A stretch of 64,000 nt of DNA from a phage. Shown one piece after another: positions 5,011 to 39,770 of this stretch. A program made the translations under genes and the position numbers. The notes under the pieces were generated by a model. The model was not told the DNA's origin. It did not search any database and saw only the letters and a program-made list of their open reading frames with translations. Positions within the stretch are counted from its first letter, which is position 1, and each line of letters begins with the position of its first letter. Location: the NCBI GenBank assembly GCA_018175075.1, contig GCA_018175075.1_4100.2; one strand, given 5' to 3'.

Positions 5011-5050
5011 ATTGGATGAGGAACAATAACTAACACAAGGAGTGTGTAAA

Positions 5051-17496: not shown

Positions 17497-17906
17497 AATT
17501 GTATTGTTTAACTAATATGTACTGCCAAGGTGTCCAAGCTGGTATTCAAGCATTCCATGCTGGTGTTAAACTAATTAAAGAATATGAAGGTACTGCTTTC
17601 AGTACTATTATTGATGAATGGTACTATGAACACGAAACTATTGTAGTACTAAATGCTGGTGGACATGATAAGTTAAATTCTTATTATAACAACCTTAGCA
17701 AACAGGGAAAAGTTCCGTTTGCCAAATTCAATGAAGCTGGATTGAATGATGCTATTACCTGTGTAGCAGTACTGTGTACGTCTGAAATGATTGAAGACAT
17801 GGCTGTTATGCGTATGAATCTTCCTGCTGGTGATCAACTAATGCAAGTAAAATATGGTGCATTGTTTGACACACTAAAAGCAATCAGTACAATGAGGACT
17901 ATTTGA
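17487..17906 (+). CDS. hypothetical protein
   Basis: ORF. Confidence 0.5.
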   Translation: MEMKLYCLTNMYCQGVQAGIQAFHAGVKLIKEYEGTAFSTIIDEWYYEHETIVVLNAGGHDKLNSYYNNLSKQGKVPFAKFNEAGLNDAITCVAVLCTSEMIEDMAVMRMNLPAGDQLMQVKYGALFDTLKAISTMRTI

Positions 17907-19105
17907 TGGATTTTCCAGAGAAGTTATTTGTTGCACGTTCCTATGTAAACCACAACCAAGTTGATGGTTTTATTATCGATGCAACAAGATCACATACAAA
18001 AGCGTTTGAAACAAAGAAAGAGAGAGCAGAGTACTGGGCAAAGAAGAACAATCTTCCATCGTTATATATTGACAACGTTCCAACTACTGGATTTTGTGTA
18101 GTTGATAAATTAACAATTCATGCACGAGAAACATATTTCACAATCCGTCACCCAGAAGGATTTGAATTTATGATTAGTGCCAAAAACATGAATGATTTAA
18201 TTATCAATAACGATATAATCAAAGGTGTTTTTGTAGACCCAATGTTTTTCAACAATAACTTAGAATTAATTAATGGTAAAACAAAAACATTTGCTAAGTT
18301 AGTTGAAAAAGAAAATAAAAAAGAACAACAAAAAGAAACTGTAGCAGGTCTTAAAGTTGGTGATGGTTTCACGTATCTCAAAGAAGATTACTATTACTGC
18401 GGTAAAGTACATGCAATTTGTATAAAGAAAACTAAAGAATTTGCATACCCCGACAAAAGTTCTGTTTATCATTTACTTTTTAACAGTACTCGTGGAACTT
18501 ATGCATTGAATCAACGTTTGGATAATTACAATCTTGAACCTCGTGCACTCCTGAATAAGAAGACTACGGCAGATGAAGAAATTAAACTTGCTAATGAATT
18601 TTGGCAAAGCTATAGAACAAACAGACATAACCCATTAGGTGAATCTAATATTCCAGTACTGGTACACAATAAATCATTTAAAGCAAAAGACCTTAAAATT
18701 AAATACGAAGAAATAAATGTTGATGATCTTATGAATAATGGACGTTTCAACGAGAACGTACCATTTATGACTAAAGATAATGAACAAACATATCGCGTAT
18801 TTTTTGGTGTAAGTAATAATACAACGCGTAGTTATTATGGGCGTAGTGGAGATTATAATATCCATTATAATGATAAATTTGAACGCTTTAGTGCATATCC
18901 AGTTCAAATTGATGATAATGGGATTATGGTAATGGATGTTGATATTAATGAACACTCATCATTTAGTACATGGAATGGCTATCGTTCCCCATTCTTCCCA
19001 CCAAATGAACGCAAAACATCAAGCACTCGTTACTACCAAGACAAACCATGTCACGTCCAACTATCAATTAGTAATCCACTTTATATTGGAAAGTATTATC
19101 TATAA
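17903..19105 (+). CDS. hypothetical protein (400 aa)
   Basis: ORF immediately upstream of DNA ligase. Confidence 0.55.
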   Translation: MMDFPEKLFVARSYVNHNQVDGFIIDATRSHTKAFETKKERAEYWAKKNNLPSLYIDNVPTTGFCVVDKLTIHARETYFTIRHPEGFEFMISAKNMNDLIINNDIIKGVFVDPMFFNNNLELINGKTKTFAKLVEKENKKEQQKETVAGLKVGDGFTYLKEDYYYCGKVHAICIKKTKEFAYPDKSSVYHLLFNSTRGTYALNQRLDNYNLEPRALLNKKTTADEEIKLANEFWQSYRTNRHNPLGESNIPVLVHNKSFKAKDLKIKYEEINVDDLMNNGRFNENVPFMTKDNEQTYRVFFGVSNNTTRSYYGRSGDYNIHYNDKFERFSAYPVQIDDNGIMVMDVDINEHSSFSTWNGYRSPFFPPNERKTSSTRYYQDKPCHVQLSISNPLYIGKYYL

Positions 19106-19116
19106 AGGAATATACA

Positions 19117-20535
19117 ATGAGCATTTTAGCAATTCTTGAAAGCATTAAAAATACTAGCAGTACACTAGGCAAAAAAGCTATTCTTGAACAAAATAAAGAT
19201 AATGTAACTTTACAAAAAGTACTGAAATATACACTAGACCCTTCTATCGTTAGTGGCTATAAGAAGCTCCCTGCCGCTGATGACGTATATCAACATATGA
19301 CGTTAGATGAAGCAATTGATAAGCTAGAATGCATTTACAAGCGTGATGTGACAGGAAATGCGGGGCGTGATTTCATTGCTTCAGTACTGGGTTCAGTATC
19401 AGAAGATGATCAAGAAGTTCTCCGTAAAATGCTTACTAAAAACCTTGATTGTGGTATTCAAGAAAAGAACTGCAATGATGTATTTGGTAAAGGCTTTATT
19501 AAAGACGAACCATATATGCGTTGTTCTTTGATTGACAAAAAGACTGCAAAGAACATCAACTTCAAAGATTATGGTTACGCTATATCAGAAGTGAAAATGG
19601 ATGGTCAGTACTTGAACCACGTTGTCATTAATGGTTCATTAACTTCTACATCCCGTAATGGTAAACTATACGACTTCCTGGGTTGTCGTGATGGTGAGAT
19701 GGCAGGTCTTGCTCACATCATCCAAAGTAAAGATGAACGTTTTAGTAGTGGTGTAGTCTTTATGGGTGAAGGTGTAGTACTGGACAATGATGGAGAAACC
19801 ATTCTCCCACGCACTACTGGCAATGGTATAATTCAGAAAGCTGGAAAAGATAGTATCAGTCAGAATGAAGCAATGCGTACTGTATTTGTTCTATGGGATG
19901 TTGTTCCATATGATGCATTTTGTGAAGGTGTATGGGATGTAAAACGTAAAGAACGTCGCGAGATCTTAGTAGATGCAATTAACGAACTCAGTAGTGATTT
20001 TGTTCGTATGGTTGGATTCCGTAAAGTTCTAAACATCAAAGAAGCATTTGAGTACAATAGTGAACTAATGAGCGTAGGTGAAGAGGGTTCAGTACTGAAA
20101 TGTGAAGATGGTATCTGGAAATCTCACACTTCTCCTAAGCAATTGAAAATGAAACTCAAAATGCAACTGGACTTGCGTATTGTTGGTTTCAATGAAGGTG
20201 AAGGTAAGCGTAAAGGTAGCCTTGGTTCTTTACAACTGGAAAGTGCTTGTGGTACATTGAAAGTTAATGTAGGTACTGGAATTAAAGAGAAAGACGCAGA
20301 ATGGACGTTTAAAACCATTTGGGAAAGAATGCAAGAACTCATCGGTCAAGTAGTAACAGTAGAGTGCAATGATATTGTATTCGATAAGCGTACTGGTGAG
20401 CCATCACTGTTCTTACCAGTGTTTATTGAATTTAGATTTGACAAAAACACTTGTGATGATTATACTCGTATCTTAGAAATTCGTGAGAGTGCAGTTGAAG
20501 TGTTCTCAAACAGTATTATTGACGCATTAGGTTAA
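19117..20535 (+). CDS. ATP-dependent DNA ligase (T4 gp30-like)
   Basis: N-terminus resembles T4 DNA ligase (KQKQAILEKNKDN in T4 vs GKKAILEQNKDN here); KxDG-type motif EVKMDGQ; RBS AAGGA. Confidence 0.85.
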   Translation: MSILAILESIKNTSSTLGKKAILEQNKDNVTLQKVLKYTLDPSIVSGYKKLPAADDVYQHMTLDEAIDKLECIYKRDVTGNAGRDFIASVLGSVSEDDQEVLRKMLTKNLDCGIQEKNCNDVFGKGFIKDEPYMRCSLIDKKTAKNINFKDYGYAISEVKMDGQYLNHVVINGSLTSTSRNGKLYDFLGCRDGEMAGLAHIIQSKDERFSSGVVFMGEGVVLDNDGETILPRTTGNGIIQKAGKDSISQNEAMRTVFVLWDVVPYDAFCEGVWDVKRKERREILVDAINELSSDFVRMVGFRKVLNIKEAFEYNSELMSVGEEGSVLKCEDGIWKSHTSPKQLKMKLKMQLDLRIVGFNEGEGKRKGSLGSLQLESACGTLKVNVGTGIKEKDAEWTFKTIWERMQELIGQVVTVECNDIVFDKRTGEPSLFLPVFIEFRFDKNTCDDYTRILEIRESAVEVFSNSIIDALG

Positions 20536-20554
20536 CCATTTATTGGAGGTAATT

Positions 20555-21346
20555 ATGAAATTTGTTGTAACATCTGATGTACACGGTGGGACTGATTACC
20601 TCCATAGTGGTGATTACAGTGATACAGTACTGATTATTGCTGGGGACTTCGATGAAGTTAAACGCAGTCGTTACCGTACTGGTATCGAATCACTATGTAA
20701 GCAGTTTAAGAATGTAGTACTGGTTCCTGGCAATCATGAATATTATGGTTCCAATATCCACAAAACGCATAAAGTACTGTCCGATATACAAGATGAGATT
20801 CCAAATTTCATCTTTTTGCAAAACAAATTTGTATGGCTGGATGGAGTACTGCTTGTTGGTAGTACTCTGTGGACAGACTTCGATAAAGGTAATTCTTTGA
20901 CGAAGTTTGATGCTCGTCAGAAGATGAACGATTACAAACATATCCGTCATGGAACAACATCAGAGCCTTGGCGTAAGAAACTGACACCAGATGATACTGA
21001 GTTTATGCATCACAAAGATAAACAATTTATCAAAAATTCTATTGACACAGTTCGCTTTATGCATGATAATGATTTCAAGGTCATCGTGGTTACCCATCAC
21101 GCACCAAGTTATCAAAGTATTTCACCAAAATATAAAAATGATTCACTGAATGGTTGTTACTGTTCCGATATGGATCAGTACATTGAAGATTTGGGTGCTG
21201 ATGTTTGGATTCATGGTCATGTTCATAGTAGCTTTGACTACCACATTGGTAAGACACGTATCATTTGTAATCCACGAGGCTATGAATCATACAGTGGAGC
21301 TTGTGAGAATTTTGATTACAATCCTAAATTTGTATTTGAAATTTAA
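20555..21346 (+). CDS. calcineurin-like metallophosphoesterase
   Basis: SDVHGG, AGDFDE, GNHEYY, GHVH motifs; start at ATG 20555 after GGAGG. Confidence 0.75.
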   Translation: MKFVVTSDVHGGTDYLHSGDYSDTVLIIAGDFDEVKRSRYRTGIESLCKQFKNVVLVPGNHEYYGSNIHKTHKVLSDIQDEIPNFIFLQNKFVWLDGVLLVGSTLWTDFDKGNSLTKFDARQKMNDYKHIRHGTTSEPWRKKLTPDDTEFMHHKDKQFIKNSIDTVRFMHDNDFKVIVVTHHAPSYQSISPKYKNDSLNGCYCSDMDQYIEDLGADVWIHGHVHSSFDYHIGKTRIICNPRGYESYSGACENFDYNPKFVFEI

Positions 21347-21358
21347 TGAGAGGATATT

Positions 21359-21742
21359 GTGTCATTAATTTATTTTGAACTACCAGAATATACCAATTAT
21401 CCAAGCCGAGTTATTTGCTCAGTTTATAGTAATGCATATCATCACTTGTTAGTGAATAGTAATAAAGCTGTGCATTATTATCGAAATAAAGAACCACGTA
21501 CATTAAAGAATCGTTATGGTTTTGACCCAACTAACACTGAAGTTGAACTCTGTGATCTGTTTGGGGAAGTAATGGTGGTGTTGAAACGAGATATTCATCT
21601 TTTCCATACATACAAACTTAATCAGTACTTTATGGAAACACTGTCTATACGTTCCCATGCTCCGATGATTAAAGTTGATTTGAATTATGTTGATGATAAA
21701 TTGAAATATGATTTTATAAATTCACTTGTTTATTTGGAGTAA
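21359..21742 (+). CDS. hypothetical protein
   Basis: GTG start after GAGAGGA. Confidence 0.45.
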   Translation: MSLIYFELPEYTNYPSRVICSVYSNAYHHLLVNSNKAVHYYRNKEPRTLKNRYGFDPTNTEVELCDLFGEVMVVLKRDIHLFHTYKLNQYFMETLSIRSHAPMIKVDLNYVDDKLKYDFINSLVYLE

Positions 21743-21743
21743 T

Positions 21744-22148
21744 ATGAATATACGTTCAGTACGAATATTTTCATTTGTTGACATGAATGAAAAACACTCT
21801 TATGTGTTTGAAACTGTCAATAAGTTAAATCCTCATACGGCAAAAATGATTGAAACCATGAAGATCTTGAGTTTGCATATAGAAGTTTACTATCTTCATG
21901 ACGATTCTGTTTTTGTATATGATGATGGATGGTATGACGGTGTGTTTTATGATGACATTAGCACTACTGCTGATTACTACTTTCTAGTGAGTAATCCACT
22001 ATTCAGTACTAAAACTTTGTTTGACATTACCGATACAAGCGTGTATGATACAAGTCATGTTGAGTTACTTAAGTTTGATCCAGTATTATTCAACAAAGAG
22101 ACGGCGTATTGGATGACTGATTTCTTTTCAAATATTCCAGTAAAATAG
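21744..22148 (+). CDS. hypothetical protein
   Basis: ORF; start at ATG 21744 after GGAGT. Confidence 0.45.
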   Translation: MNIRSVRIFSFVDMNEKHSYVFETVNKLNPHTAKMIETMKILSLHIEVYYLHDDSVFVYDDGWYDGVFYDDISTTADYYFLVSNPLFSTKTLFDITDTSVYDTSHVELLKFDPVLFNKETAYWMTDFFSNIPVK

Positions 22149-22149
22149 T

Positions 22150-22178
22150 TTGGACATTTTAAATCTTAGTGATATAAT
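22150..22178 (+). promoter_or_regulatory. sigma70-like early promoter upstream of clpP
   Basis: -35-like TTGGAC/TGGACA at 22150-22156; extended -10 TGATATAAT at 22170-22178. Confidence 0.55.
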
Positions 22179-22212
22179 ACTCACAACAACGAAATAATAG
22201 AGGAAATTAATA

Positions 22213-22908
22213 ATGGTTGAACAATTCATGTTTGGTGGTTATGCTAATGGCGAAGTACGTAACATTTCTATTCCTTACGTAGTTGAGAAAGTTAATGGTT
22301 CAGAACGTACATATGATCTAGCATCTCGTATGATGCAAGACCGTATCATTTTCCTTGATACTGATTTCAATGATCAAATGGCACATATCATCAAACAACA
22401 ATTGGTATGGTTAGACTCACAAGGTGATTCCCCTATTACATTCTACATTAGTTCACCGGGTGGTTCAGTACACGCAGGTTTGGGTATTGCAGATGTTGCT
22501 AAGTCTTGTATTTCCCCAATTCGCACTGTAGTTATGGGTTATGCAGCATCAATGGGTTGCTATACACAATCTGTTATTGGGACTAAAGGTTTCCGTTTAG
22601 GTGGTAAACGCTCATACTTCATGTGTCACCAAGTAAGTTCTGGTACACAAGGTCTAATTACTGACCAGAAGATTTCACTTAAACATTCTGATGCCCTAAA
22701 CACTCTATTGACTAAAGAAATTGCAGAAGCAGTTGGTGTATCACACGAACAACTACTGAAAGATGCGGATCGTGACCTGTGGTTGAACGCTGAAGAAGCA
22801 CTCGAATACGGTGAACATGGTTTCATTGATGGTATCATCCTCGGACCACGCAACGAAGAAGGTAAGTATCTCGTCAAACGTCGCGGTGGCGTTGAAGAGT
22901 GGGTCTAA
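22213..22908 (+). CDS. clpP: ClpP-family serine protease
   Basis: ISSPGGSVHAG, catalytic GYAASMG and CHQ motifs; RBS GAGGAA. Confidence 0.75.
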   Translation: MVEQFMFGGYANGEVRNISIPYVVEKVNGSERTYDLASRMMQDRIIFLDTDFNDQMAHIIKQQLVWLDSQGDSPITFYISSPGGSVHAGLGIADVAKSCISPIRTVVMGYAASMGCYTQSVIGTKGFRLGGKRSYFMCHQVSSGTQGLITDQKISLKHSDALNTLLTKEIAEAVGVSHEQLLKDADRDLWLNAEEALEYGEHGFIDGIILGPRNEEGKYLVKRRGGVEEWV

Positions 22909-22920
22909 TTTGAATTTCAT

Positions 22921-22950
22921 TTGATGCCTCATTTGGGGCATCTTATTTCT
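22921..22950 (+). terminator. possible attenuator/terminator hairpin
   Basis: Hairpin GATGCC...GGCATC followed by interrupted T-run. Confidence 0.35.
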
Positions 22951-22959
22951 GGAGATTTT

Positions 22960-23250
22960 ATGAAAGTTCTTGTACGTAATAATACTGAAGTCAATGATGT
23001 GTTAGATGATTCAGAGTTTATTAATACCGCATTAGATCAGATTAGTGCAGTGGCTATTGAATTGAAAGGTGTTGACGAGGCAGAACGAGTACTCAATGGT
23101 TTTTCTATTGTTCTCGAATTAATGCAAGAAGTTCTTATTAAAAAGAACATTAATCCAATTAACGCAGTTCAACACGCAGAAGCTATGCGTCAAGAACATG
23201 GCACATTCTCAGATAAAAAATTCATCAGTACTGACGAGGGGAAAGAATAA
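22960..23250 (+). CDS. hypothetical protein
   Basis: ORF; start at ATG 22960 after GGAG. Confidence 0.45.
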   Translation: MKVLVRNNTEVNDVLDDSEFINTALDQISAVAIELKGVDEAERVLNGFSIVLELMQEVLIKKNINPINAVQHAEAMRQEHGTFSDKKFISTDEGKE

Positions 23251-23251
23251 T

Positions 23252-23698
23252 ATGTCTAATGCACAATACAAAGAAGGTTCTGCCGCGTTTAAAAACAAAG
23301 TAGTTTTTAACAATGAACAGCTAAAATCACAGCACCCATTATTCCGTCAAGGATATCGTGCTGCACAAGCTGAAGCTATGAAGAAAAATAACGTAACCTT
23401 CCCAACAACTCTGTATGATATTCCCAAACGTCCTTCAGTGTTTAAAGCAGAATGGACTGACATTATGGCAGCAACTAAACGTCCTCGTTTTGCTAAACTT
23501 CACACTGATGAAGGTCGCTGGATGTTGATGGGTATTATGAAAGCAGTTGAGAAACAGGCACATACTATTGTTCGTTACAAAGACGTTGTAGCTATGGTTG
23601 ATAAAGCATTTGATCTTATTCTCCAGTACGGTTATGATGAAGGTGTACTAACTGTTTCCGATTGTGAGCAGTACCAGTACACTCCATTCCAGAAATAA
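23252..23698 (+). CDS. hypothetical protein
   Basis: ORF; start at internal ATG 23252. Confidence 0.45.
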   Translation: MSNAQYKEGSAAFKNKVVFNNEQLKSQHPLFRQGYRAAQAEAMKKNNVTFPTTLYDIPKRPSVFKAEWTDIMAATKRPRFAKLHTDEGRWMLMGIMKAVEKQAHTIVRYKDVVAMVDKAFDLILQYGYDEGVLTVSDCEQYQYTPFQK

Positions 23699-23704
23699 TT
23701 ACTT

Positions 23705-23733
23705 AGGGAATCTTTCATGATTCCCATTTTATT
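23705..23733 (+). terminator. intrinsic terminator
   Basis: Hairpin GGGAATC...GATTCCC plus T-rich tail. Confidence 0.6.
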
Positions 23734-23811
23734 TGCTGCATATCAAAAATTATTGATCAAAAATTGATCCATACAAGGTAAATACCCAAGGTGTAATTGT
23801 TAATAGGGTAG

Positions 23812-24018
23812 GTGGATATGCAGCAATATAATTTAACTGAAGAACAAAGTGATATTTTTTATCATCATATGTTTTTAATTGATGAGTTTGCTTTGAAAAT
23901 TAATTCTGAAGCAATTGATATATTGAAGAAATGGTATTCATATTATAATAAAAACAAAAAGTGGTATTGGTTTAATAGAAATTTAAAGTCATTTTTTAAA
24001 AACAATAACACAAGTTGA
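23812..24018 (+). CDS. small hypothetical protein
   Basis: ORF. Confidence 0.4.
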   Translation: MDMQQYNLTEEQSDIFYHHMFLIDEFALKINSEAIDILKKWYSYYNKNKKWYWFNRNLKSFFKNNNTS

Positions 24019-24028
24019 TAGTGTAGAA

Positions 24029-24367
24029 ATGATACATAGTTCAATTGGATATAGTTATTTGACTAAACACAATAATACTATGATGTTATCCGGTTTTAAA
24101 GTTGAAAGAATTTCAAAGCTTACAGGTTTATCATTAAAAACAATTTTATATGATATAGAAAAGATTTGGAAAACTATAGAATTCATGCACAAAAATATGT
24201 CATTCATATATAGAAATTATGATATATTCACTGAGGTACGTCAATATCATAATAAACCTTATGTATTGAATGAAAAGTACTATAATCATATGGAAGTTTG
24301 TTCTAAACTCGTTGATGATTGGAATCTAGAGGGACATAATGAAATACACACACATAAGTATAGATGA
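24029..24367 (+). CDS. hypothetical protein
   Basis: ORF. Confidence 0.45.
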   Translation: MIHSSIGYSYLTKHNNTMMLSGFKVERISKLTGLSLKTILYDIEKIWKTIEFMHKNMSFIYRNYDIFTEVRQYHNKPYVLNEKYYNHMEVCSKLVDDWNLEGHNEIHTHKYR

Positions 24368-24863
24368 TACTAATATCTGGTTAGATAACATAATCAAGAC
24401 ATTAGAATTAATTAAACTTACATTACAAAAAACTACTGATATTGAAATTAATATTAAACAAGAAATATTAAACTATTATCATAGAAACAAATATAGCACG
24501 TTTATCTCTAAATTAATTTATGGATTATATGATATTGAAGATATTTGCATCGGTTACAGTACTGGTATTTGCTTCACTGTTAATGGTTTAAAAAATGATT
24601 TAAATTTCAGACTTTCCGATGAAGAGCAAGATTTTCGTAGATTTTGTGATAATATTATGGATACAGACAAAATTACATTTGTGATTGAATTAAATCAAAC
24701 ATGGTCTACATATGCAGATAAACCATTTGAAATTAATGAAACAGATGTGTTAAACTATATTCGAGTTATGAAAATTCATGATTTGTGTAAAAACGCATTG
24801 TTAAGTATTGGAGCTTATAATGAAACATACGACTTGGTTGAAGATAGCAGAAGTAGTTGCTGA
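24339..24863 (+). CDS. hypothetical protein
   Basis: ORF; 3' end overlaps cd start, boundary uncertain. Confidence 0.45.
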   Translation: MKYTHISIDDTNIWLDNIIKTLELIKLTLQKTTDIEINIKQEILNYYHRNKYSTFISKLIYGLYDIEDICIGYSTGICFTVNGLKNDLNFRLSDEEQDFRRFCDNIMDTDKITFVIELNQTWSTYADKPFEINETDVLNYIRVMKIHDLCKNALLSIGAYNETYDLVEDSRSSC

Positions 24864-25299
24864 GGAAAGTAAATGTATTTCACAAAAAGTTGGTTGTGTT
24901 ATTGTTAAAAATAATAGAGTATTGAGTACTGGATACAATGGAACGCCATCTAAGCAGCCAAACTGTTGTGATGTAAATCAACATTTAGTGAACGATGGTC
25001 GTTTTCAAGACTGGGTTGATGATGCAGCAAAACATGAACATCATGAGTGGAGTAATATTCATGAGATCCATGCAGAGATGAACGCTTTACTGTATAGTTC
25101 TCCGACTGAACGCCAAGGAGCAACTCTTTACACAACTCTACAACCATGCTATACTTGTTCTAAGTTAATCGCAGGTAGTGGGATTACCCGTGTAATTTAT
25201 CACAAAAGTTATCCACGAACACCACCTGAAGCGATTAAAGTACTGGAAGATGCTGGGATTATTGTTAACTGCATTTATGACAAGGGTATGAATCAATGA
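24820..25299 (+). CDS. cd: dCMP deaminase
   Basis: HAEMNAL and PCYTCSKLI zinc-binding deaminase motifs; start at ATG 24820. Confidence 0.8.
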   Translation: MKHTTWLKIAEVVAEESKCISQKVGCVIVKNNRVLSTGYNGTPSKQPNCCDVNQHLVNDGRFQDWVDDAAKHEHHEWSNIHEIHAEMNALLYSSPTERQGATLYTTLQPCYTCSKLIAGSGITRVIYHKSYPRTPPEAIKVLEDAGIIVNCIYDKGMNQ

Positions 25300-25550
25300 C
25301 ATTTATGATTGTTGGATTTCTATCAATATTAGTATTATTTTTTATAACAGTAATGTTTGTTATTGATGATAATGACATTTCTCAACGAAACTATGAAGTG
25401 CGTTTTTCTGCACAAAATAATAAGTACTATATTGTAAACTGTATACACCGTAGTGAGAAAAGGGTAACAAGTAGATTTGGATTTACCATTTATTATAAAG
25501 ACCGAGTAGAAGCTGACATGATTTGTCAGAAGCTTAATACTGTAGAATAA
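25296..25550 (+). CDS. small membrane protein
   Basis: N-terminal hydrophobic segment; followed by bidirectional terminator. Confidence 0.45.
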   Translation: MTFMIVGFLSILVLFFITVMFVIDDNDISQRNYEVRFSAQNNKYYIVNCIHRSEKRVTSRFGFTIYYKDRVEADMICQKLNTVE

Positions 25551-25578
25551 AAAAAGGAGCCACAAGGCTCCTTTTTTG
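25549..25578. terminator. bidirectional intrinsic terminator between convergent genes
   Basis: Hairpin GGAGCC...GGCTCC flanked by an A-run and a T-run. Confidence 0.65.
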
Positions 25579-25956
25579 TTAACCAGGGATGTTACAATAA
25601 TACAAATCCCAAGGGTGATATTTCATTTCTCCAGTACTCAATTTAATTTTATGAAACTGGAATGATTCGGCAAATGCACTATCATCAATCTTAATACAAA
25701 AAGTATTTTTTGCTAAAGTTGGTGCAATCTCTAGTGCAGTTTTAGATGCATCTAATCTGATTTTATCTTTATCAAAACTTGTTATAGTTACAAAACGATA
25801 AACATTAAAATCAGTGTCGATAAGATCGTAAACACAACTAGAACGTTGATTAAAGATGTTCAAGTTATATTTCAATTCACCGTTTATATTAGCGGCGGTT
25901 ACACAAAAGCCGCCGATATTGAATGGTAATTTACCTTGTGCTGCTATAGCTTTCAT
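25579..25956 (-). CDS. hypothetical protein (only substantial minus-strand gene in window)
   Basis: 125-aa ORF; minus-strand RBS AGAGGAAA upstream of ATG; convergent with plus-strand genes. Confidence 0.55.
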   Translation of the reverse strand: MKAIAAQGKLPFNIGGFCVTAANINGELKYNLNIFNQRSSCVYDLIDTDFNVYRFVTITSFDKDKIRLDASKTALEIAPTLAKNTFCIKIDDSAFAESFQFHKIKLSTGEMKYHPWDLYYCNIPG

Positions 25957-26084
25957 ATTTTATTTCCTCTTATTAATAAACAACTACTTTTACAGATTGT
26001 TGTACCTTTTATATTTACACCGTCAACTAAATATCCACCTAAAGTGAATGGAAATTGGTCTTGTCCTGCGATTGGTTTTCCCAT
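25955..26084 (-). CDS. upstream small ORF (43 aa) translationally coupled to 25579..25956
   Basis: Minus-strand ATG preceded by TAAGGAG; stop TGA overlaps the main ATG; peptide MGKPIAGQDQFPFTLGGYLV resembles the main protein N-terminus MKAIAAQGKLPFNIGGFCV. Confidence 0.4.
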
Positions 26085-26162
26085 TAAGGGCACTCCTTAT
26101 AAAAAAGCTTTACATTTGGTATGTGTTTGTGATAGAATCTTCACAGTGATTGTACTAAGGGG

Positions 26163-26190
26163 ATTATCAGATGAGGGAAATTTGAGTTAA
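26163..26190 (-). promoter_or_regulatory. candidate minus-strand promoter (TTAACT -16- GATAAT)
   Basis: Read on reverse complement; lies in divergent intergenic region. Confidence 0.3.
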
Positions 26191-26203
26191 GTACAGAAAA
26201 AGT

Positions 26204-26232
26204 TTGACTTAAGTGTTTAAGTACTATATTAT
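26204..26232 (+). promoter_or_regulatory. candidate sigma70-like promoter (TTGACT -17- TATTAT)
   Basis: -35 TTGACT at 26204-26209; flanked by TTAAGT(AC) repeats. Confidence 0.45.
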
Positions 26233-26265
26233 TTATATCTTCCTAACCAAAATTAAGGATTTGTT

Positions 26266-26874
26266 ATGAAAAGACTATGGCTTGAGGTAGTACAAGCAGT
26301 AATGCTTCTGATGTTGATAAATTTTCCAGCCAGTGCTGGTATTGAAAGTAAAAATGTGATAAAGTACAATCCTGAAACACGTAATGTATATTTCATCTCA
26401 GATATTACGGATGGGTCACTAAAGCGTATGATGGAGTTGTATGATAAAGAACACTATGATACCATTACCATCACATCGCCAGGTGGTGATTTTGATGCTG
26501 GGATTAAAATGGCAAACTTCGTTAGAGACAATGGTATAAATTTAATTGTTTCTAGGTATTGCAACTCAGCATGTACTGTGGTATTCTTCAGTGTAGCTTT
26601 TGAAAAGCGATACATGATAAATCGCTCAGTACTGGGTCTTCATAACATTTCGATTAAAAGTAATGTTACTGATGGTGATAATTCATTTGTGTCTGTAAGA
26701 CAGCTATCAACTTTTACCGAAGAAATGGCAACAAAGGTAGGTTTCCTTTTTTCACTATATGCAGCAAATGGAATCCCACCAGAAGTTCTATTTAGAGTTA
26801 GTCGTTCTCGTGGTGAAGATGTTGTAATATTAACAAAACCAGAACTGGTTTTTTACGGTTCAGTCAAACAATAA
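26266..26874 (+). CDS. secreted ClpP/S49-fold serine protease-like protein
   Basis: N-terminal signal peptide (hydrophobic core, AGI); ITSPGGDFDAG and NSAC motifs resembling the ClpP SPGG and Ser-site regions; a His is present. Confidence 0.5.
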   Translation: MKRLWLEVVQAVMLLMLINFPASAGIESKNVIKYNPETRNVYFISDITDGSLKRMMELYDKEHYDTITITSPGGDFDAGIKMANFVRDNGINLIVSRYCNSACTVVFFSVAFEKRYMINRSVLGLHNISIKSNVTDGDNSFVSVRQLSTFTEEMATKVGFLFSLYAANGIPPEVLFRVSRSRGEDVVILTKPELVFYGSVKQ

Positions 26875-26944
26875 AAATAATTAAAATAACAGGATGATTA
26901 TGATGTACTTCCTTTGTTATTAATTATATTGAGATTATATAACT

Positions 26945-27205
26945 ATGACAAACATCCAAAACTTGACATCTATTATTTTTTATGCTACTGTAGTAATGTA
27001 TGCTACAGTTATTTTTCTAACAGTTTTCATTTACAAAGATTATCGTAATGGCTTTATTGATCCAACTACAATGAAGTTCAATTCAAAATTCGAAGCAATA
27101 ATTTATTATGTACTATCAACTTCATACTTGGTGTGCCTAATGTTGTTAGGAGCACTAATTTATATCTTATACACAACATTATTTGCAATTGGAGCTATTT
27201 TATGA
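26945..27205 (+). CDS. small membrane protein
   Basis: Two hydrophobic segments. Confidence 0.45.
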   Translation: MTNIQNLTSIIFYATVVMYATVIFLTVFIYKDYRNGFIDPTTMKFNSKFEAIIYYVLSTSYLVCLMLLGALIYILYTTLFAIGAIL

Positions 27206-27795
27206 CCTGTATTATTGCACACACTGACGGAGTAAGTTCTTTTATTGCTGGGGATAAGTTAGGAAGCAATGGATTTACAAAAACTGTTCAAACTGAGCCA
27301 AAGGTATTCGAGAAAGAATTTATCAAGTTACATGATGATGGACTAACTAGAACTAAAGAAGTAATGGCATTGGGTTATACTACATCATTTCGTATGGGTC
27401 AGTTGTTAAATTATAACCTTAATTTACCTGAACAAGATGCTAGTCAAACATTTTCACAATATTTGGTTCTTAAAGTTATTCCAATCATTCGTCAAATGTT
27501 TAAAGAAGAATGGGGTGCACGAGATGCATCACAAGATGTAGGTGGTGGACAATTTATCATTCTCCACAATCATACAATCTATGAAGTTCAAGAAGACTTT
27601 TCAGTACTACAACCTAAAACAAGAATTACCGCAGTAGGTAGTGGGACATATCATGCAATTGCAGCAATGCAAGCATATATTGAAGTTGAGAACGAATCTA
27701 AAAAACCACTACACGAACGTATCAAATCAATTTTTAAAATTGTTAGTGATAATGTAACAAGCGTAAGCGAAGAGTTTGATGTTTTAAAATATTAA
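27202..27795 (+). CDS. HslV/proteasome-like Ntn-hydrolase peptidase
   Basis: Predicted N-terminus MTCIIAHTDG...IAGDK and AVGSGTYHAIAAMQAY, compared with E. coli HslV TTIVSV...IAGDGQ and IAIGSGGPYAQAAARA; Thr2 would be N-terminal after Met removal. Confidence 0.5.
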   Translation: MTCIIAHTDGVSSFIAGDKLGSNGFTKTVQTEPKVFEKEFIKLHDDGLTRTKEVMALGYTTSFRMGQLLNYNLNLPEQDASQTFSQYLVLKVIPIIRQMFKEEWGARDASQDVGGGQFIILHNHTIYEVQEDFSVLQPKTRITAVGSGTYHAIAAMQAYIEVENESKKPLHERIKSIFKIVSDNVTSVSEEFDVLKY

Positions 27796-27822
27796 AAGTA
27801 CTAATATTATAAGAGAGAATAG

Positions 27823-28023
27823 ATGATGGCATACACAATTTATGAATGGGTTTTGAGTTTTTTTATAGTTTTTTCTATTGTTGTAATTTATAACAATGCT
27901 AAATGCTTATATAGAGACTTGAAATCCAATGGTTATCACAAAGATAATAATTTTATGTATGCCTATCATATTGGAATCATTCTGTTATTATCAATATATT
28001 TAATTGTTTTTTATAAGGATTGA
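27823..28023 (+). CDS. small membrane protein
   Basis: Hydrophobic ORF. Confidence 0.45.
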   Translation: MMAYTIYEWVLSFFIVFSIVVIYNNAKCLYRDLKSNGYHKDNNFMYAYHIGIILLLSIYLIVFYKD

Positions 28024-28025
28024 AT

Positions 28026-28778
28026 ATGATATCAGAAAAATTTATAAGCAATGAAGGTAAAAAGCGATTACTGATTATATCAGGTGCAGGACTTTCTGTT
28101 GAAAGTGGTATGGAACCTTTTCGATTTGATGATGGTTTGTGGGATACATTTAAAATTAATGATGTATGTAACATTGCTAGTTTAACTACGAAATATCACG
28201 TTGTTCATTCCTTCTATAATACATTACGTGTAAAATTGGGACAATGCGAACCCAATGCAATGCATTATTTTATAAAATCGTTAGAAGATCAATATGGTGA
28301 TTGCTTCCTTCATATGACTTCTAACATGGACGATCTTTATACTCGTATTGGTGGTCATGAGCTTAAACTTCATGGAAACTTGTGCGAAGTTATTGAAAAT
28401 TATAGTATCAATTCCGATGATTATAATGTTATTAACTGCGGATACGAACCATACATACCAAAACATGATGTTTTTGCTAAACCAAATGTAGTAATGATTG
28501 GAGAATATCATCGTTATGTTGATGGTATTCGCTTACCAATTTACGAAGAACGAAATAATGTGTTGAAATCTCTTAATGAAAATGATACAGTTATTGTAAT
28601 TGGTAGTAGCGATACAGTACTGGTATGGTCGAGATTAGCAGCAGCATTACCATGTTATAGTGTTAATGTTAACATTCGTAAAAATGATAATGATTTTTTG
28701 TTTAATGAAAAAGTTATCAAGCCAGCAACCAAAGCAATACCGCATCTAGAGACTATAATTAAGGAACGTATGAAATGA
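28026..28778 (+). CDS. Sir2-family (sirtuin-like) NAD-dependent protein
   Basis: GAGLSVESGMEPFR NAD-binding motif and LHGN catalytic His motif; start at ATG 28026. Confidence 0.65.
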   Translation: MISEKFISNEGKKRLLIISGAGLSVESGMEPFRFDDGLWDTFKINDVCNIASLTTKYHVVHSFYNTLRVKLGQCEPNAMHYFIKSLEDQYGDCFLHMTSNMDDLYTRIGGHELKLHGNLCEVIENYSINSDDYNVINCGYEPYIPKHDVFAKPNVVMIGEYHRYVDGIRLPIYEERNNVLKSLNENDTVIVIGSSDTVLVWSRLAAALPCYSVNVNIRKNDNDFLFNEKVIKPATKAIPHLETIIKERMK

Positions 28779-29326
28779 GTGTTAAAGAAGTTCCCTTTGG
28801 TGAATATGGCACACGTGCAAATTTTGTATTTTGTTATTTCTTTGCAAGAAAATGCAACCCTTACAAAAACTATGAGTTGAATGATATACCAGAAGTAAAT
28901 TTAGTATTACTGCAATTACGATGGGATGGTCTTCTTGGTGGATGTGGTGGAACCGTAGAAAGTACTGATATCTCACTAGAAGATGCGTTGCGTCGTGAAG
29001 TTCAAGAAGAAATGGATTACAATATTTTTGTTTCCCATCTTCGACCACTCAAAACTTTTGAAATTTACCCAGGTGCAAACAGTCACAGTTTTAGCTATGA
29101 AGTAACCTATGACGAGTTGAAACACATTAGAGATGGATACACTAATGCTAAACATGCAAGTGCAGAAGTTGCTGGTGTAAATTTATGTCATATTTCTCGT
29201 TATTCTAAGGGACAAAATCGAGAAGCGGGATATAATAATCTTATGACACAGAACTTCATCGGTACAGCAAAACAAGAATTGGAGTATCTGGTTCAAAAAG
29301 AAAACTTACTAATTAGTTATCTATAG
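28775..29326 (+). CDS. Nudix-like hydrolase
   Basis: GCGGTVE ... REVQEE matches a Nudix box with atypical spacing. Confidence 0.45.
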   Translation: MSVKEVPFGEYGTRANFVFCYFFARKCNPYKNYELNDIPEVNLVLLQLRWDGLLGGCGGTVESTDISLEDALRREVQEEMDYNIFVSHLRPLKTFEIYPGANSHSFSYEVTYDELKHIRDGYTNAKHASAEVAGVNLCHISRYSKGQNREAGYNNLMTQNFIGTAKQELEYLVQKENLLISYL

Positions 29327-29335
29327 GAGTTTAAC

Positions 29336-29656
29336 ATGTCTTACTCAATGTTTTTGGATGATATTCGTGATGCAAATCTATATTATCCAAACCAAGATAT
29401 GGTGGTATGTCGTGACTTTAAAAGTGCATGTGAATATGTTATTGAAAATGGAATTCCAGCATTTGTATCATTCGACCATGACTTGGGTGATGTGAGCGAA
29501 GACGAAAAGACTGGATATTCTTTTGCTAAGTTTCTTATTGATTATATGTTTGATAATAATATTAAAGAACCGTTTGAGTACTTTGTTCACAGTAGTAATC
29601 CTGTTGGTAAAATTAATATTGAAACATACTTAAACAATGGATTTAACTCATTATGA
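29336..29656 (+). CDS. hypothetical protein
   Basis: ORF; RBS GGAG. Confidence 0.5.
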   Translation: MSYSMFLDDIRDANLYYPNQDMVVCRDFKSACEYVIENGIPAFVSFDHDLGDVSEDEKTGYSFAKFLIDYMFDNNIKEPFEYFVHSSNPVGKINIETYLNNGFNSL

Positions 29657-29955
29657 TTCAAACACACATCAAAAGTCTTATTTGTACTGTTCTGTTAGGT
29701 GCAGGAGTTCTTTGGTTCGGACAGTATCACGAGAACACTAAGCGTACCAACATTCACTACAATACCGCAGAAGTTGTTAGTTTAGGACAATGTAGCGAGT
29801 CCAAATGTTCATTTATGTATAAAACCCAAAGTGGTGAAGTACGTAATGGACTATCAAGAGAACCAGTTTCAATTGGTCAACTTGTTTACCAGGAGTGCTG
29901 GGAAGAAAAGGTTCGAGGTTCACGTTGCTATGTTGAATACGAACCAAATATGTAA
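29653..29955 (+). CDS. small membrane protein
   Basis: N-terminal TM segment; conserved cysteines. Confidence 0.45.
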   Translation: MIQTHIKSLICTVLLGAGVLWFGQYHENTKRTNIHYNTAEVVSLGQCSESKCSFMYKTQSGEVRNGLSREPVSIGQLVYQECWEEKVRGSRCYVEYEPNM

Positions 29956-30015
29956 TAATCCGAGTCAATAACATTAGTCGAGTACAAGGATGTACTCATA
30001 ACTCAAGGATGTTTT

Positions 30016-31455
30016 ATGAAAAAATATACAATTGACACAAACGTACTACTATCTGACCCTAATGCATCTATTGCTTTTGATGGTGCTGCAATCATTCTAC
30101 CATTTACAGTACTGGAAGAATTGGATTCAATTAAGAGTCGTAATGTAGATGTTTCACGCGATGCTCGTGTTGCTATTCGTAACATTGAAGCAATTATTGC
30201 AGATGCATCACATGATGAGATTAGTAGTACTGGTGTTAATATTGCTGATGTTCATACCAATATGAATCCTGATAGCAAATTGTTTGTTATTACAAACGAA
30301 GAAGCTGAAGCACTAATTCGTACTAAAGGTTCAGAAGAGAAAGTTCAAACCCTTCTCAAAAGCACAGTACCTGATGATAAAATCATTCTGGTAGCTTTAG
30401 CAACAGAATCAGTACTGGTAACTCGTGATATCAACATGCGTATCAAAGCACTAAGTTATGGTGTCGAGGTACAAGATTATCGCCATGATATTGTTATTGG
30501 TGATAGTGATTTGATTCACATTGGTCAACACCATTTGGAAATCAATTTTTGGGAAGTATATAGCAACTTAACCAATACTAATATTCAATCCGAACAAGTT
30601 GGTCGTCGTTTGTATCATTACATTTCCAAAAGCTTGATTGAGCATTTGCTCCCACAAAATCTATGCATCGGGGATTATCTATATGATGATGCAGACGTAT
30701 TATTTGTGTACGAAGGTCAATCAGCAATTGAGGAAGATGATGGAACACTAACACCAGAAGATATTTTGGTATTCCAAGATATTGGACAATCAGTAGCTTT
30801 ACGTGCTAAAGTATGGGATATTAAAGCAAAGAATATCCAACAAGCACTCGCCATCAACAGTATTCTCGATCCTGATGTACATCTAACAGTACTGCTAGGT
30901 TCTGCTGGTACTGGTAAAACACTAATTACGATTGCGACTGCATTAGAATTAGTACTGGAAAAACGTAAATACGACCGAATCATCTTCTCTAAAACTCAAG
31001 ACTCACAGTTTGAAGATATTGGTTTCTTGCCAGGTTCAGAAGCAGAAAAAGTGATTCCATTCTGTGGAGCCGCAATTGACGCGTTAGAGTTTCTTCATAA
31101 AGATGATGCTAACCCTCAAGGTAGTATTGAAGAGATTATGAAACGTAATGTTATTCAATTTAAAGCACTAAACTTTGTACGTGGACGTTCATTCACCAAC
31201 ACTATTCTAGTAGTTGATGAATTCCAAAACATTACACCTGCACAAGCCAAAACAATCTTGACACGAGCAGGATTAAACTGTAAAGTAGTAATTATGGGTA
31301 ACTTGAGTCAGATTGACAGTAAGTTTATTAGTCCTGTTAACAGTGGTTTGACATATGTAACTGAGAAGTTTAAAGATTGGGCAGGTTGTCGTGTCATCGA
31401 ACTAGAAGGTGTTGTTCGTTCACCACTTGCAGAATTTGCTGAAGAAAATATGTAA
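30016..31455 (+). CDS. phoH: PIN-domain / PhoH-like ATPase
   Basis: N-terminal IDTNVLL (PIN-like); Walker A LLGSAGTGKT; Walker B-like ILVVDEFQN; RBS AAGGA. Confidence 0.8.
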   Translation: MKKYTIDTNVLLSDPNASIAFDGAAIILPFTVLEELDSIKSRNVDVSRDARVAIRNIEAIIADASHDEISSTGVNIADVHTNMNPDSKLFVITNEEAEALIRTKGSEEKVQTLLKSTVPDDKIILVALATESVLVTRDINMRIKALSYGVEVQDYRHDIVIGDSDLIHIGQHHLEINFWEVYSNLTNTNIQSEQVGRRLYHYISKSLIEHLLPQNLCIGDYLYDDADVLFVYEGQSAIEEDDGTLTPEDILVFQDIGQSVALRAKVWDIKAKNIQQALAINSILDPDVHLTVLLGSAGTGKTLITIATALELVLEKRKYDRIIFSKTQDSQFEDIGFLPGSEAEKVIPFCGAAIDALEFLHKDDANPQGSIEEIMKRNVIQFKALNFVRGRSFTNTILVVDEFQNITPAQAKTILTRAGLNCKVVIMGNLSQIDSKFISPVNSGLTYVTEKFKDWAGCRVIELEGVVRSPLAEFAEENM

Positions 31456-34492: not shown

Positions 34493-35107
34493 ATGACTAC
34501 ATCGGAAAAGTACTGGTGGATTTTGGCTCATCCTAAATTCATAAACAAAGATATGGTTCCAGCTAGGATTGATATAGAACCTCATGATGTGTGTCCAATG
34601 ACAAATCGAATTGAAGATTTCAAAGCATTGAATACAAAGACTCAATTTTGGGTAGAATTTCTTTCACCAATGTATATTGAGCAAGACGACGAATGGGTAC
34701 AAGCACATGATTATCAATTGGATTGTGGTGGTGATACGTATGAAGAGGCGATTGATAAATTATACAAAAATGTGCTAAACACATATGGTGATTACACCCA
34801 ACAAGAAGCAGATAACACATTTAATAAGATCCATGCATTCAAATCTACTCCATCAATTTTTAATCCCACTAAAACTGTTTGGGAGGAACGACACAGTTGG
34901 AGTTCATGTGTAATCGATGAAGAAACCAAAGAAAAAATCATCGATGATATAAAAAATTTAAAAAATACGATAGAAGCCTTGCGTGAATTCATAATGTCTT
35001 GTACAATAGAACAACAGAAAGAGGCAAAGATACATTTGGAGAGTGAAGAATGTAAACTTTGGGTTCTAGAGAAATCTATTGAAAAGGGTATAGACTTAGA
35101 CTTATGA
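34493..35107 (+). CDS. hypothetical protein
   Basis: ORF; start at ATG 34493 after TTGGAG. Confidence 0.5.
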   Translation: MTTSEKYWWILAHPKFINKDMVPARIDIEPHDVCPMTNRIEDFKALNTKTQFWVEFLSPMYIEQDDEWVQAHDYQLDCGGDTYEEAIDKLYKNVLNTYGDYTQQEADNTFNKIHAFKSTPSIFNPTKTVWEERHSWSSCVIDEETKEKIIDDIKNLKNTIEALREFIMSCTIEQQKEAKIHLESEECKLWVLEKSIEKGIDLDL

Positions 35108-35472
35108 ATAGTAAATTGGAGAAACTAATCGAAGAATTACGCCAGATGCCACCTATTGAACAAGTAGGAAATTACAAACGGTATCGTGTTATTGCTCGTG
35201 CACTTGATAAAAAAGGTAGAGTACTGGCAACTCGCACAAATTCTTATACACAGACTCACCCAGTACAGAAGGGTTTCGCCATTCGTGCTGGGCGACCGCA
35301 AGGTGAGTTTCTTCATGCTGAAATTTCATGTTTACTGGCTGCTCGTGCTGATGTTCATACTTTACTGATTGCACGGATAAGTAAAGATGGAATTCCTGTT
35401 CCGGCTAAACCATGTGAAATTTGCTCATTAGCAATAAAAGAATATGGGGTGAAAGAGATTATCCACACATGA
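35104..35472 (+). CDS. CDA-fold zinc deaminase-like protein
   Basis: HAE and PCEIC motifs of cytidine/deoxycytidylate deaminase-like zinc enzymes. Confidence 0.55.
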   Translation: MNSKLEKLIEELRQMPPIEQVGNYKRYRVIARALDKKGRVLATRTNSYTQTHPVQKGFAIRAGRPQGEFLHAEISCLLAARADVHTLLIARISKDGIPVPAKPCEICSLAIKEYGVKEIIHT

Positions 35473-39762: not shown

Positions 39763-39770
39763 TATAAATA
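39763..39770 (+). promoter_or_regulatory. T4-type late promoter motif TATAAATA
   Basis: Exact TATAAATA about 35 nt upstream of the 39805 ATG. Confidence 0.45.

Follow-up and report, generated by a model that had tools for sequence, protein, structure and literature searches.

A short minus-strand reading frame beside a virion-protein gene of an Asteriusvirus is probably the remnant of a deleted paralogue

Two overlapping minus-strand open reading frames in the genome of an Asteriusvirus, a 121Q-like jumbo phage, one encoding 125 aa and the other 43 aa, are best read as a reduced late virion-protein cassette, in which the shorter frame (hereafter the stub) is what is left of a deleted paralogue of ~640 aa. 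We put the probability of this reading at about 0.82. The stub is probably translated still, and probably has no function of its own. The window, by which we mean the whole stretch of 64,000 nucleotides that was analysed, is 97% identical to Escherichia phage 121Q, where the two frames are already annotated, as genes 471 and 472. Amino-acid identity amounts to 99.2% between the 125-aa protein and 121Q gp471 and to 95.7% between the stub product and gp472, and in both phages the two genes are placed identically with respect to their neighbours. The features of the locus are the following:

25549..25578, both strands: bidirectional intrinsic terminator, AAAAAAAGGAGCC-ACAA-GGCTCCTTTTTT
25579..25956, minus strand: gene of the 125-aa virion protein (121Q gp471, phAPEC6 gp347, PBECO4 gp098)
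25953..26084, minus strand: stub (121Q gp472), of 43 aa with ATG as start codon or 46 aa with the GTG at 26093
25973..25990, minus strand: 3' piece of the stub, AAAGTAGTTGTTTATTAA, which in the +1 frame reads KVVVY-stop with the presumed original TAA at 25975..25973
about 25988-25991, minus strand: putative deletion junction, in an A-run
25991..26084, minus strand: 5' piece of the stub, start codon and ~31 codons (MGKPIAGQDQFPFTLGGYLVDGVNIKGTTIC.) of the presumed lost gene, from alignment with loci L003, L012 and L014
25976..26177, no strand assigned: segment specific to the 121Q lineage (stub and 5' leader), from a three-way alignment
26093..26098, minus strand: Shine-Dalgarno sequence AAGGAG of the stub, 8 nt before its ATG
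26204..26232, plus strand: sigma70-like promoter TTGACT-17-TATTAT for the ClpP-like protease gene (ATG at 26266)
26237..26230, minus strand: TATAAATA, T4-type late-promoter motif upstream of the minus-strand cassette

A preliminary description of this DNA had already pointed to both frames, their ATGA overlap, the bidirectional terminator and the similarity of the two N-termini, and all of these were found where it had placed them. Its view that the 125-aa gene is the only convincing minus-strand gene agrees with the 121Q annotation, in which genes 471 and 472 alone, 2 of 95 CDSs in the matching 50 kb, lie on the minus strand. It had further proposed an independently acquired, separately regulated module. 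Separate regulation is borne out, in that the cassette has a late-type promoter and a terminator of its own, apart from its plus-strand neighbours. Independent acquisition, however, does not sit well with synteny: an opposite-strand gene adjoins the dCMP deaminase gene in Asteriusvirus, Alcyoneusvirus (RaK2), Mimasvirus (CBB) and Eneladusvirus (fHe-Yen9-04), that is, in at least four genera of RaK2-like phages, and the arrangement is therefore old.

Comparison of gene 471 with its PBECO4 counterpart yields 20 synonymous and 3 nonsynonymous differences (dN/dS 0.03), a ratio that indicates strong purifying selection. The orthologue in phAPEC6, gp347 (14.10 kDa, 97.6% identical), was detected by virion mass spectrometry with 8 unique peptides and 75.2% coverage (PMC7247149), and CBB_112, the syntenic counterpart, was found in CBB virions at 24.3% coverage. 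Judged by these two orthologues, the 125-aa protein is a virion protein. The gene has a Shine-Dalgarno sequence of its own, GAGGA at 25969..25965, which is conserved in PBECO4-like phages.

With respect to its structure, gp471 consists of nothing but the N-terminal ~120-aa domain of a larger family. This domain occupies residues 1 to about 122 in 98 of 98 representatives (among 1.84 billion proteins), and it always stands at the extreme N-terminus of proteins that range from 76 to 1859 aa. It is followed by variable arrays of Big_2, Big_1, Invasin_D3 and HYDIN-type Ig domains, such that the locus behaves as a variable cassette with a constant N-terminal domain and differing Ig-like arrays. Profile comparison matched gp471 to phrog_33171 (E 3e-88) and phrog_10468 (E 9e-13), and the stub, which has the N-terminal motif of the family, M(G)KPIAG..PF..GG, to positions 1-32 of phrog_10468 (E 0.0099). 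Pfam, on the other hand, gave no match for either frame, for gp471 none at E <= 1, and structure comparison with an AlphaFold2 model of gp471 (pLDDT 83.9) gave no informative match and none that was Ig-like.

The C-terminal end of gp471 runs straight into the stop and terminator with which a longer gene closes in L003, and gene 471 may itself derive from a longer gene (~440 aa) by an in-frame deletion up to the stop. If the N-terminal domain is what attaches the protein to the surface of capsid or tail, as we infer, the 125-aa protein would be a bare anchor that displays nothing.

The case for the stub as a remnant rests on what its relatives carry at the same place. In L003, three genes of 637, 162 and 162 aa lie between the ClpP-like protease and the dCMP deaminase, and in L012 and L014 intact 640-aa homologues occupy the position of the stub. 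Over its first 80 nt the stub matches the beginning of the 637-aa gene with 77.5% identity (E 2e-12), and at the protein level the two agree in 67% of 33 aa. The similarity of the stub to the N-terminus of gp471 is lower, with 48% identity across 25 aa (E from 2e-5 to 4e-4 by tblastn within the window). The same AAGGAG precedes the intact long gene in L003. At the other end, the long proteins terminate in ..KVVVY* (L014), ..KVIVY* (L003) or ..KLIVY* (L012), and the corresponding 18-mer of L014, searched in the window on both strands with <=3 mismatches, has its sole match at 25973..25990 (0.24 expected), though this 3' remnant is only 18 nt long. The locus thus shows what a gene remnant should show, namely an intact homologue at the orthologous position, both ends kept and the frame broken.

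These observations point to an internal deletion of ~1.8 kb, which probably removed the middle of a second family member of ~640 aa; its end-points are placed by relatives that are ~70-77% identical. Promoter, leader, ribosome-binding site, start codon, ~31 codons and the last 18 nt would have been retained. Since the junction would be out of frame, the old TAA would be read through and the next stop would fall on the ATG of gene 471, so that the overlap of the stub's TGA (25955..25953) with that ATG (25956..25954) would have come about by accident. The resemblance of the two N-termini is, by the same alignments, one of paralogy and not of mimicry or recent duplication.

Locus comparison across related phages had been recommended by the preliminary description, which took one continuous longer gene in relatives, or minus-strand frames that are not conserved, as evidence against its own reading. 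The outcome comes near to that: such a gene exists, and the upstream frame is not conserved, but the longer gene is the neighbouring paralogue and not an extended gene 471. Other decayed states of the locus were found in the fragments A4_466 and A4_465 and in the 162a/162b split of L003. No relative more than 90% identical was found to have the long gene intact, the 637-aa protein had no match in IMG/VR, and among GenBank phages none has an orthologue of the long gene that is intact beyond the N-domain.

The main alternative concerns how the truncated state came to this lineage. Rather than being produced in place, the truncated segment (about 25976-26177) could have been imported from another phage by recombination, with the spacer of PBECO4-type phages as the older state; we regard this as unlikely, though deserving of serious consideration. 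PBECO4-like phages have an unrelated, shorter spacer of ~115 bp in place of 25976..26177. Divergence among the window, 121Q and L016, a metagenome contig, forms a marked mosaic, in which blocks with 0 differences adjoin blocks with >10%, and the borders of the segment are sharp against sequence that is invariant with PBECO4, including the block 26178-26253, which is the same in the window, 121Q and PBECO4. Set against this, the order in L003 (long gene, then a gp471-like gene) is that of the window, and the 3' remnant lies exactly before the Shine-Dalgarno sequence of gene 471, as a deletion in place predicts. None of the loci that were fetched showed any relationship to the PBECO4 spacer, which therefore gives no indication of the polarity between stub and spacer.

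It is improbable that the stub works as a leader or coupling frame, whose translation would set the yield of gp471 by re-initiation at ATGA, or as a micro-protein that docks on the virion. The overlap, the intact AAGGAG and ATG and the position on a presumed late transcript would suit such a role, and the stub is retained in three genomes, namely the window, 121Q and L016, to which it is restricted. However, these three share one near-identical recombination block, and retention therefore says nothing about constraint; for the same reason we rejected as a sign of constraint the fact that the window and L016 have identical stubs, the entire 5-kb block being near-identical. Moreover, the stub is missing from 20 PBECO4-like phages that keep the 125-aa gene, and in one of them, phAPEC6, the 125-aa protein is nevertheless abundant in virions; the earlier suggestion of a leader peptide is thus not supported. 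Gene 471 can rely on its own conserved GAGGA, the 121Q stub has K3E, an exchange in one of the family's invariant positions, the overlap is accounted for by an out-of-frame deletion, and of the modelled domain the stub would span no more than the N-terminal arm and first hairpin. Since the stub keeps the late promoter, the ribosome-binding site, the start codon and the N-terminal arm MGKPIAG..PF..GG, in which the family is most strongly conserved, it may nevertheless be made late. In a speculative extension, to which we give equally little credence, it would be a live 4.6-kDa late micro-protein that feeds re-initiation on gene 471 or fills a docking site, and the constant 5' ends would serve as recombination anchors; such anchors could allow Ig-array "display" modules to be swapped between co-infecting jumbo phages.

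A partial tandem duplication, as the preliminary description had considered, would make the stub a recent copy of the 5' end of gene 471, and the similarity of the N-termini was its attraction. We consider it very improbable, as a repeat search found no direct DNA repeat linking the two, the stub is nearer to the long genes of L003, L012 and L014 than to gene 471, and it has the leader, Shine-Dalgarno sequence and C-terminal codons of the long gene. That the abutting frames with their 4-nt overlap are one split gene, as was also suggested earlier, divided by a frameshift or a sequencing error, has next to no probability, given that gene 471 aligns with all family members from its own Met1, that these positions are occupied by two distinct genes in relatives, that PBECO4-like phages possess only gene 471 of the pair, and that three independent assemblies contain the same sequence.

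The candidate late promoter of the cassette is the motif TATAAATA. It is depleted in the window, with 2 copies in 64 kb versus 13.7 expected. The second copy (39763, plus strand) precedes an 898-aa ORF of 98.59 kDa, a mass that agrees with the phAPEC6 virion protein gp323c (98.62 kDa). As for T4 late promoters, the octamer is identical, and both copies precede genes with virion-protein orthologues. The motif is conserved in PBECO4 and L003, and of 11 related loci, 9 have (T)ATAAATA ahead of the cassette. RaK2-like phages have been reported to use ATAAATA as a late motif, described for CBB and GAP32, and to have a sigma factor resembling gp55, with a gp55-like gene in CBB (PMC5259590). The leader would measure 146 nt to the ATG of the stub and about 268-274 nt to that of gene 471, which is longer than in typical T4 late leaders. 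From the motif and its context we infer that TATAAATA drives the cassette as a T4-type late promoter, from which both frames would be transcribed late, with transcription ending at 25549-25578.

The preliminary description had overlooked this minus-strand signal and had instead seen a divergent promoter region with three copies of TTAAGT(AC). The copies are there, at 26187, 26208 and 26217, but they are part of the plus-strand sigma70-like promoter region of the next gene, whose -10 element overlaps the minus-strand TATAAATA. The motif TTAAGTAC is over-represented in the window (16 versus 3.7 expected). It was rejected as a phage-wide promoter or operator, since nearly all other copies are coding, as Leu-Ser-Thr codons, and the local TTAAGT copies have no conserved counterparts in L003, a more distant locus.

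The terminator serves both strands, with the homologue of gene 470 on the plus strand and the cassette on the minus strand. Its 12-nt arms (25550-25561 and 25566-25577) are 100% complementary and are flanked by T-runs on both strands, with folding energies of -20.1 kcal/mol on the plus and -19.0 on the minus strand (z about -4.6). It is kept in PBECO4, and L003, L012 and L014 have comparable hairpins after the cassette. A consensus scan did not pick it up, and Rfam on 25000-26800 gave sub-threshold matches only, on the terminator.

Two existing labels deserve comment. In 121Q, gene 471 is called "virion structural protein; Ig domain" and gene 472 "hypothetical protein". An Ig domain was rejected for the 125-aa protein, which shows no Big_2 (PF02368) or other Pfam domain at E <= 1 and whose model has no Ig-like match; the wording was probably carried over from longer, Big_2-bearing homologues. 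The RefSeq label of the RaK2, CBB and GAP32 orthologues is "major tail protein" (lambda gpV-like). These orthologues do share a domain, Big_2, with gpV, in which it is C-terminal, and with a number of tail-tube proteins. Nonetheless, a major tail (tube) protein was likewise rejected, because the PDB profile matches to gpV, pb6 and gp13 cover only the Big_2 part (~117-197), and the N-domain had no fold match.

As a discovery this is of small importance, and its value is modest, since both frames are already annotated in 121Q and the gp471 orthologue is already proven to be a virion protein in a sister phage. What it offers is an annotation fix, with gene 472 as a probable remnant, which none of the GenBank annotations of this gene that were examined calls it, and with "Ig domain" and "major tail protein" as ill-suited to the 125-aa protein. 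Furthermore, it documents in RaK2-like jumbo phages a conserved, apparently late "antisense island" of 1-4 genes between dCMP deaminase and the ClpP-like protease, with a constant, structurally uncharacterised N-domain of ~120 aa and highly variable Ig-like arrays. Cryo-EM of phAPEC6 showed unassigned fibres on hexamers and tail, and the genes of the island are candidates for the unassigned hairs or fibres on phAPEC6 and CBB; for phiKp24, cryo-EM reported no decoration protein of this N-domain family. The locus also illustrates how an out-of-frame internal deletion can by accident yield an ATGA overlap and an apparent N-terminal "mimic".

In comparison with known systems, the stub shares with ATGA-coupled leader frames the 4-nt overlap and a position upstream on the same transcript. 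Unlike such leaders, it is not conserved, and gene 471 has its own Shine-Dalgarno sequence and is expressed without the stub in relatives. A second comparison is with the Ig-display proteins Hoc of T4 and pb10 of T5; Ig-like domains on bacteriophages are reportedly treated by Fraser et al. 2006. Structure and PDB profile searches matched the N-domain to neither Hoc nor pb10, in sequence or in fold, and the Big_2 part alone matches solved structures, among them the "Hoc-like protein ORF90" (7x30). Hoc and pb10 also have Ig domains, whereas gp471 has none. However, the orthologues phAPEC6 gp347 and CBB_112 are present in purified virions, as a protein of the Hoc/pb10 type should be, and the longer family members likewise combine one attachment-type domain with 1-7 or more exposed Ig-like domains. 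Like Hoc and pb10, they are associated with the virion; they also differ in copy number and length and have repeatedly been lost, a pattern of variation and loss that is expected for accessory surface proteins.

Over 2.4 kb around the finding, the window shares 97.2% identity with Escherichia phage 121Q (Asteriusvirus, 348.5 kb) and about 93% with some 20 PBECO4-like phages. Both minus-strand ORFs are already annotated in 121Q, gene 471 as 'virion structural protein; Ig domain' (125 aa) and gene 472 as 'hypothetical protein' (43 aa), and they are the sole minus-strand CDSs among 95 in the 50 kb matching the window, in agreement with a preliminary description made from sequence alone. The elements which that description had named are present:

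25579..25956, minus strand: 125-aa ORF (gene 471, product gp471)
25953..26084, minus strand: 43-aa upstream ORF (gene 472, here the stub), its stop overlapping the start of gene 471 in ATGA
25549-25578, both strands: bidirectional terminator, 12-nt perfectly complementary arms, T-runs on each strand

The terminator has a folding energy near -20 kcal/mol on each strand (z about -4.6); it was found by folding and repeat search and missed by a consensus terminator scan, whose negatives are thus unreliable. The observation is therefore confirmed, and its interpretation is partly right, in that the module is separately regulated, but mostly wrong, namely regarding acquisition, leader peptide, duplication and split gene. 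Three protease-like genes surround the minus-strand island (the cassette) within 22210-27800: a ClpP-like head maturation protease (121Q 464), a second ClpP-like gene (121Q 473; weak Pfam match, E 0.007) and an HslV-like gene (121Q 475). Farther along, at about 35096-35464, is a second dCMP-deaminase-like gene.

The 125-aa ORF is a genuine gene under constraint, with 20 synonymous and 3 nonsynonymous differences from PBECO4 (dN/dS 0.03). Its phAPEC6 orthologue gp347 (97.6% identical, 14.10 kDa) was detected in purified virions by 8 unique peptides at 75.2% coverage (PMC7247149); the syntenic CBB_112 of phage CBB is likewise a protein detected in virions (PMC5259590). Gene 471 has its own Shine-Dalgarno sequence, GAGGA, which is conserved in PBECO4, and the virion data show its expression in phAPEC6, a PBECO4-like phage that lacks any upstream ORF.

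The stub, judged from sequence comparison, is the remnant of a long gene. By tblastn, the 43-aa ORF as such occurs in 121Q only, while 20 PBECO4-like genomes match gene 471 alone; a third carrier is the metagenome contig L016. In a three-way alignment, PBECO4 has an unrelated, roughly 115-bp spacer in place of about 25976-26177 of the window, both flanks being nearly invariant. The related Logan contig L003 (about 70-76% identity in the flanks) shares the flanking genes, with a ClpP-like protease at one end and, at the other, an 85-aa gene and dCMP deaminase; between them it carries three opposite-strand genes of 637, 162 and 162 aa. The 637-aa gene starts with MGKPIAGQNQFPYTIGGFLVDGAKINGVT, and its first 80 nt match those of the stub at 77.5% (E 2e-12); at the protein level, the stub is 67% identical to it versus 48% to gp471. 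Intact 640-aa homologues were found by a degenerate-pattern scan in the IMG/VR contigs L012 and L014, and the long genes end in ..KLIVY* (L012), ..KVVVY* (L014) and ..KVIVY* (L003). The 18 nt at 25990..25973 of the window, AAAGTAGTTGTTTATTAA, encode KVVVY-stop one base off the stub frame; with up to 3 mismatches on both strands, the L014 18-mer matches the window there only, 0.24 matches being expected anywhere.

The simplest history would be an internal deletion of about 1.8 kb in the long gene, with its junction in the A-run TGTAAAAGT, that joined some 94 5'-terminal nt to the last 18 nt in a different frame. The long gene's own stop, TAA (25975..25973), would then be skipped, and translation would continue to the TGA overlapping the gene 471 ATG, such that the geometry suggestive of translational coupling would be an accident. 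The likeness of the two N-termini holds up but is limited (48% identity over 25 aa; within-window E about 1e-4). It reflects paralogy, gp471 and the first ~120 aa of the long gene being members of one family. A split gene had been proposed from this likeness, but the upstream ORF derives from a neighbouring gene that is paralogous to gp471. A leader peptide, as the overlap might suggest, does not agree with the remnant nature of the stub, with its absence from the 20 PBECO4-like genomes or with the independent Shine-Dalgarno sequence and expression of gene 471. A recent, partial tandem duplication is ruled out, as the two copies share no direct repeat at the DNA level.

The remnant retains AAGGAG and an ATG and is thus probably still translated, though we infer that the peptide is functionless. 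Comparison of the window with 121Q and L016 gave no evidence of selection on it: the 121Q difference is K3E, at a family-invariant position, and the L016 stub is identical to the window's within a near-identical 5-kb block (1 difference in 25500-26270, about 4 in 5 kb), other blocks differing by >10%. Across 17675-30607, divergence among the window, L016 and 121Q is strongly mosaic (0 to about 100 differences per 500-bp bin), the window grouping with L016 in some blocks and L016 with 121Q in others, which indicates that 121Q-like phages recombine frequently among themselves.

gp471 itself looks like a reduced gene. In the IMG/VR loci L013 and L014, the first ~125 residues of a 442-aa protein align with gp471 (..FDLFYCNIPTPEP..), and its C-terminus matches the third L003 gene. 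ORF 471 ends in ..CNIPG and directly meets the TAA and terminator that close the L003 cassette (junction CCTG|GTTAA), so that gp471 consists of nothing but the N-terminal domain, a form that all 121Q- and PBECO4-like phages share, fixed and under constraint. In L003, the two 162-aa genes (5001-5974) together correspond to the single 442-aa gene of L013 (1003-2331) and L014; the L003 version is therefore split or internally deleted, another decay state of the same cassette.

An opposite-strand family gene adjoins the dCMP deaminase in several genera, in states from single genes to tandem genes and fragments.

Family genes beside the dCMP deaminase in related phages
RaK2: 212 aa, N-terminal domain and one Big_2
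CBB: 218 aa
fHe-Yen9-04: two tandem genes, 345 and 301 aa
JNE01: 302 aa
UE-S1: 633 aa, six Big_2
A4: two fragments of a broken first gene, 722 aa with seven Big_2, 124 aa

Hence the orientation flip is old rather than recently acquired, and the supposed independent acquisition is not supported. The A4 fragments (L004 5001-5504; A4_466, 65 aa, and A4_465, 43 aa) come from the first-slot gene and are homologous to the N-terminal domain and next segment of the L003 637-aa gene, so that the same gene has decayed in a further lineage, independently. Phage CBB also encodes another family member, the virion structural protein gp483 (377 aa, L009 3001-4134), whose gene likewise stands alone against genes on the other strand and is preceded by ATAAATA at 32 nt.

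As for regulation, the T4 late-promoter octamer TATAAATA occurs twice in 64 kb versus 13.7 times expected, and ATAAATA five times at 67% A+T; this strong avoidance fits use as late promoters:

26237..26230, minus strand: TATAAATA, directly upstream of the cassette, overlapping the -10 of the divergent plus-strand promoter
39763-39770, plus strand: TATAAATA, 42 nt before the 898-aa ORF 39805-42501
12077, 31743 and 49189, plus strand: other ATAAATA sites

The site at 49189 lies just upstream of tail-fibre genes 507/508. The cassette motif is conserved in PBECO4 and L003, (T)ATAAATA precedes the cassette in 9/11 related loci, and work on CBB (PMC5259590) reported, for this phage group, a gp55-like sigma factor and an ATAAATA motif in front of structural genes. 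Together these suggest that the cassette is transcribed late, from about 26224 to the terminator, which upholds separate regulation and would explain why a virion gene runs antisense to the nucleotide-metabolism and protease genes around it. ORF 39805-42501 is 121Q gp499 ('hypothetical'), whose computed mass of 98.59 kDa agrees with the phAPEC6 virion protein gp323c (98.62 kDa); it is probably another late virion gene, lying within a nucleotide-metabolism block.

The three TTAAGT(AC) copies noted in the promoter region all exist but carry no special signal: the local ones lie inside the sigma70-like promoter TTGACT-17-TATTAT of the plus-strand protease gene and are not kept in the more distant L003, and elsewhere in the window TTAAGTAC nearly always falls within genes as Leu-Ser-Thr codons. 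A further strong sigma70-like match with extended -10 (TTTACA-18-TGaTAGAAT, 10/12; 26109-26138, plus strand) points towards the ClpP-like protease gene, antisense to the stub leader, inside the 121Q-specific segment, and is absent from PBECO4-like phages.

The AlphaFold2 model of gp471 (28-sequence alignment; pLDDT 83.9, pTM 0.80) shows residues 1-17, the site of the most conserved motif, as a poorly ordered N-terminal arm, and the rest as two small beta-rich halves. Foldseek gave no PDB match (best E 0.5), BFVD returned RaK2-like homologues and uncharacterised Atu_ph07 proteins only, and PDB profile searches matched through Big_2 only; none gave a functional lead for the N-terminal domain, for which the labels 'Ig domain' (gp471) and 'major tail protein' (orthologues) are therefore unsupported. 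A profile of domain-only members found 98 representatives among 1.84 billion proteins, 76 to 1859 aa long, with the domain always at residues 1 to about 122 and Big_2, Big_1, Invasin_D3 or HYDIN-type Ig arrays in the C-terminal parts. Because of this constant position, the variable arrays after it and the presence in virions, we propose the domain as a candidate virion-docking module of an accessory surface-display family, with gp471 as an anchor-only version. Cryo-EM of phAPEC6 has shown fibres on hexamers and tail rings that have no assigned protein. The proposed family would work like Hoc and pb10, while being a member of neither family.
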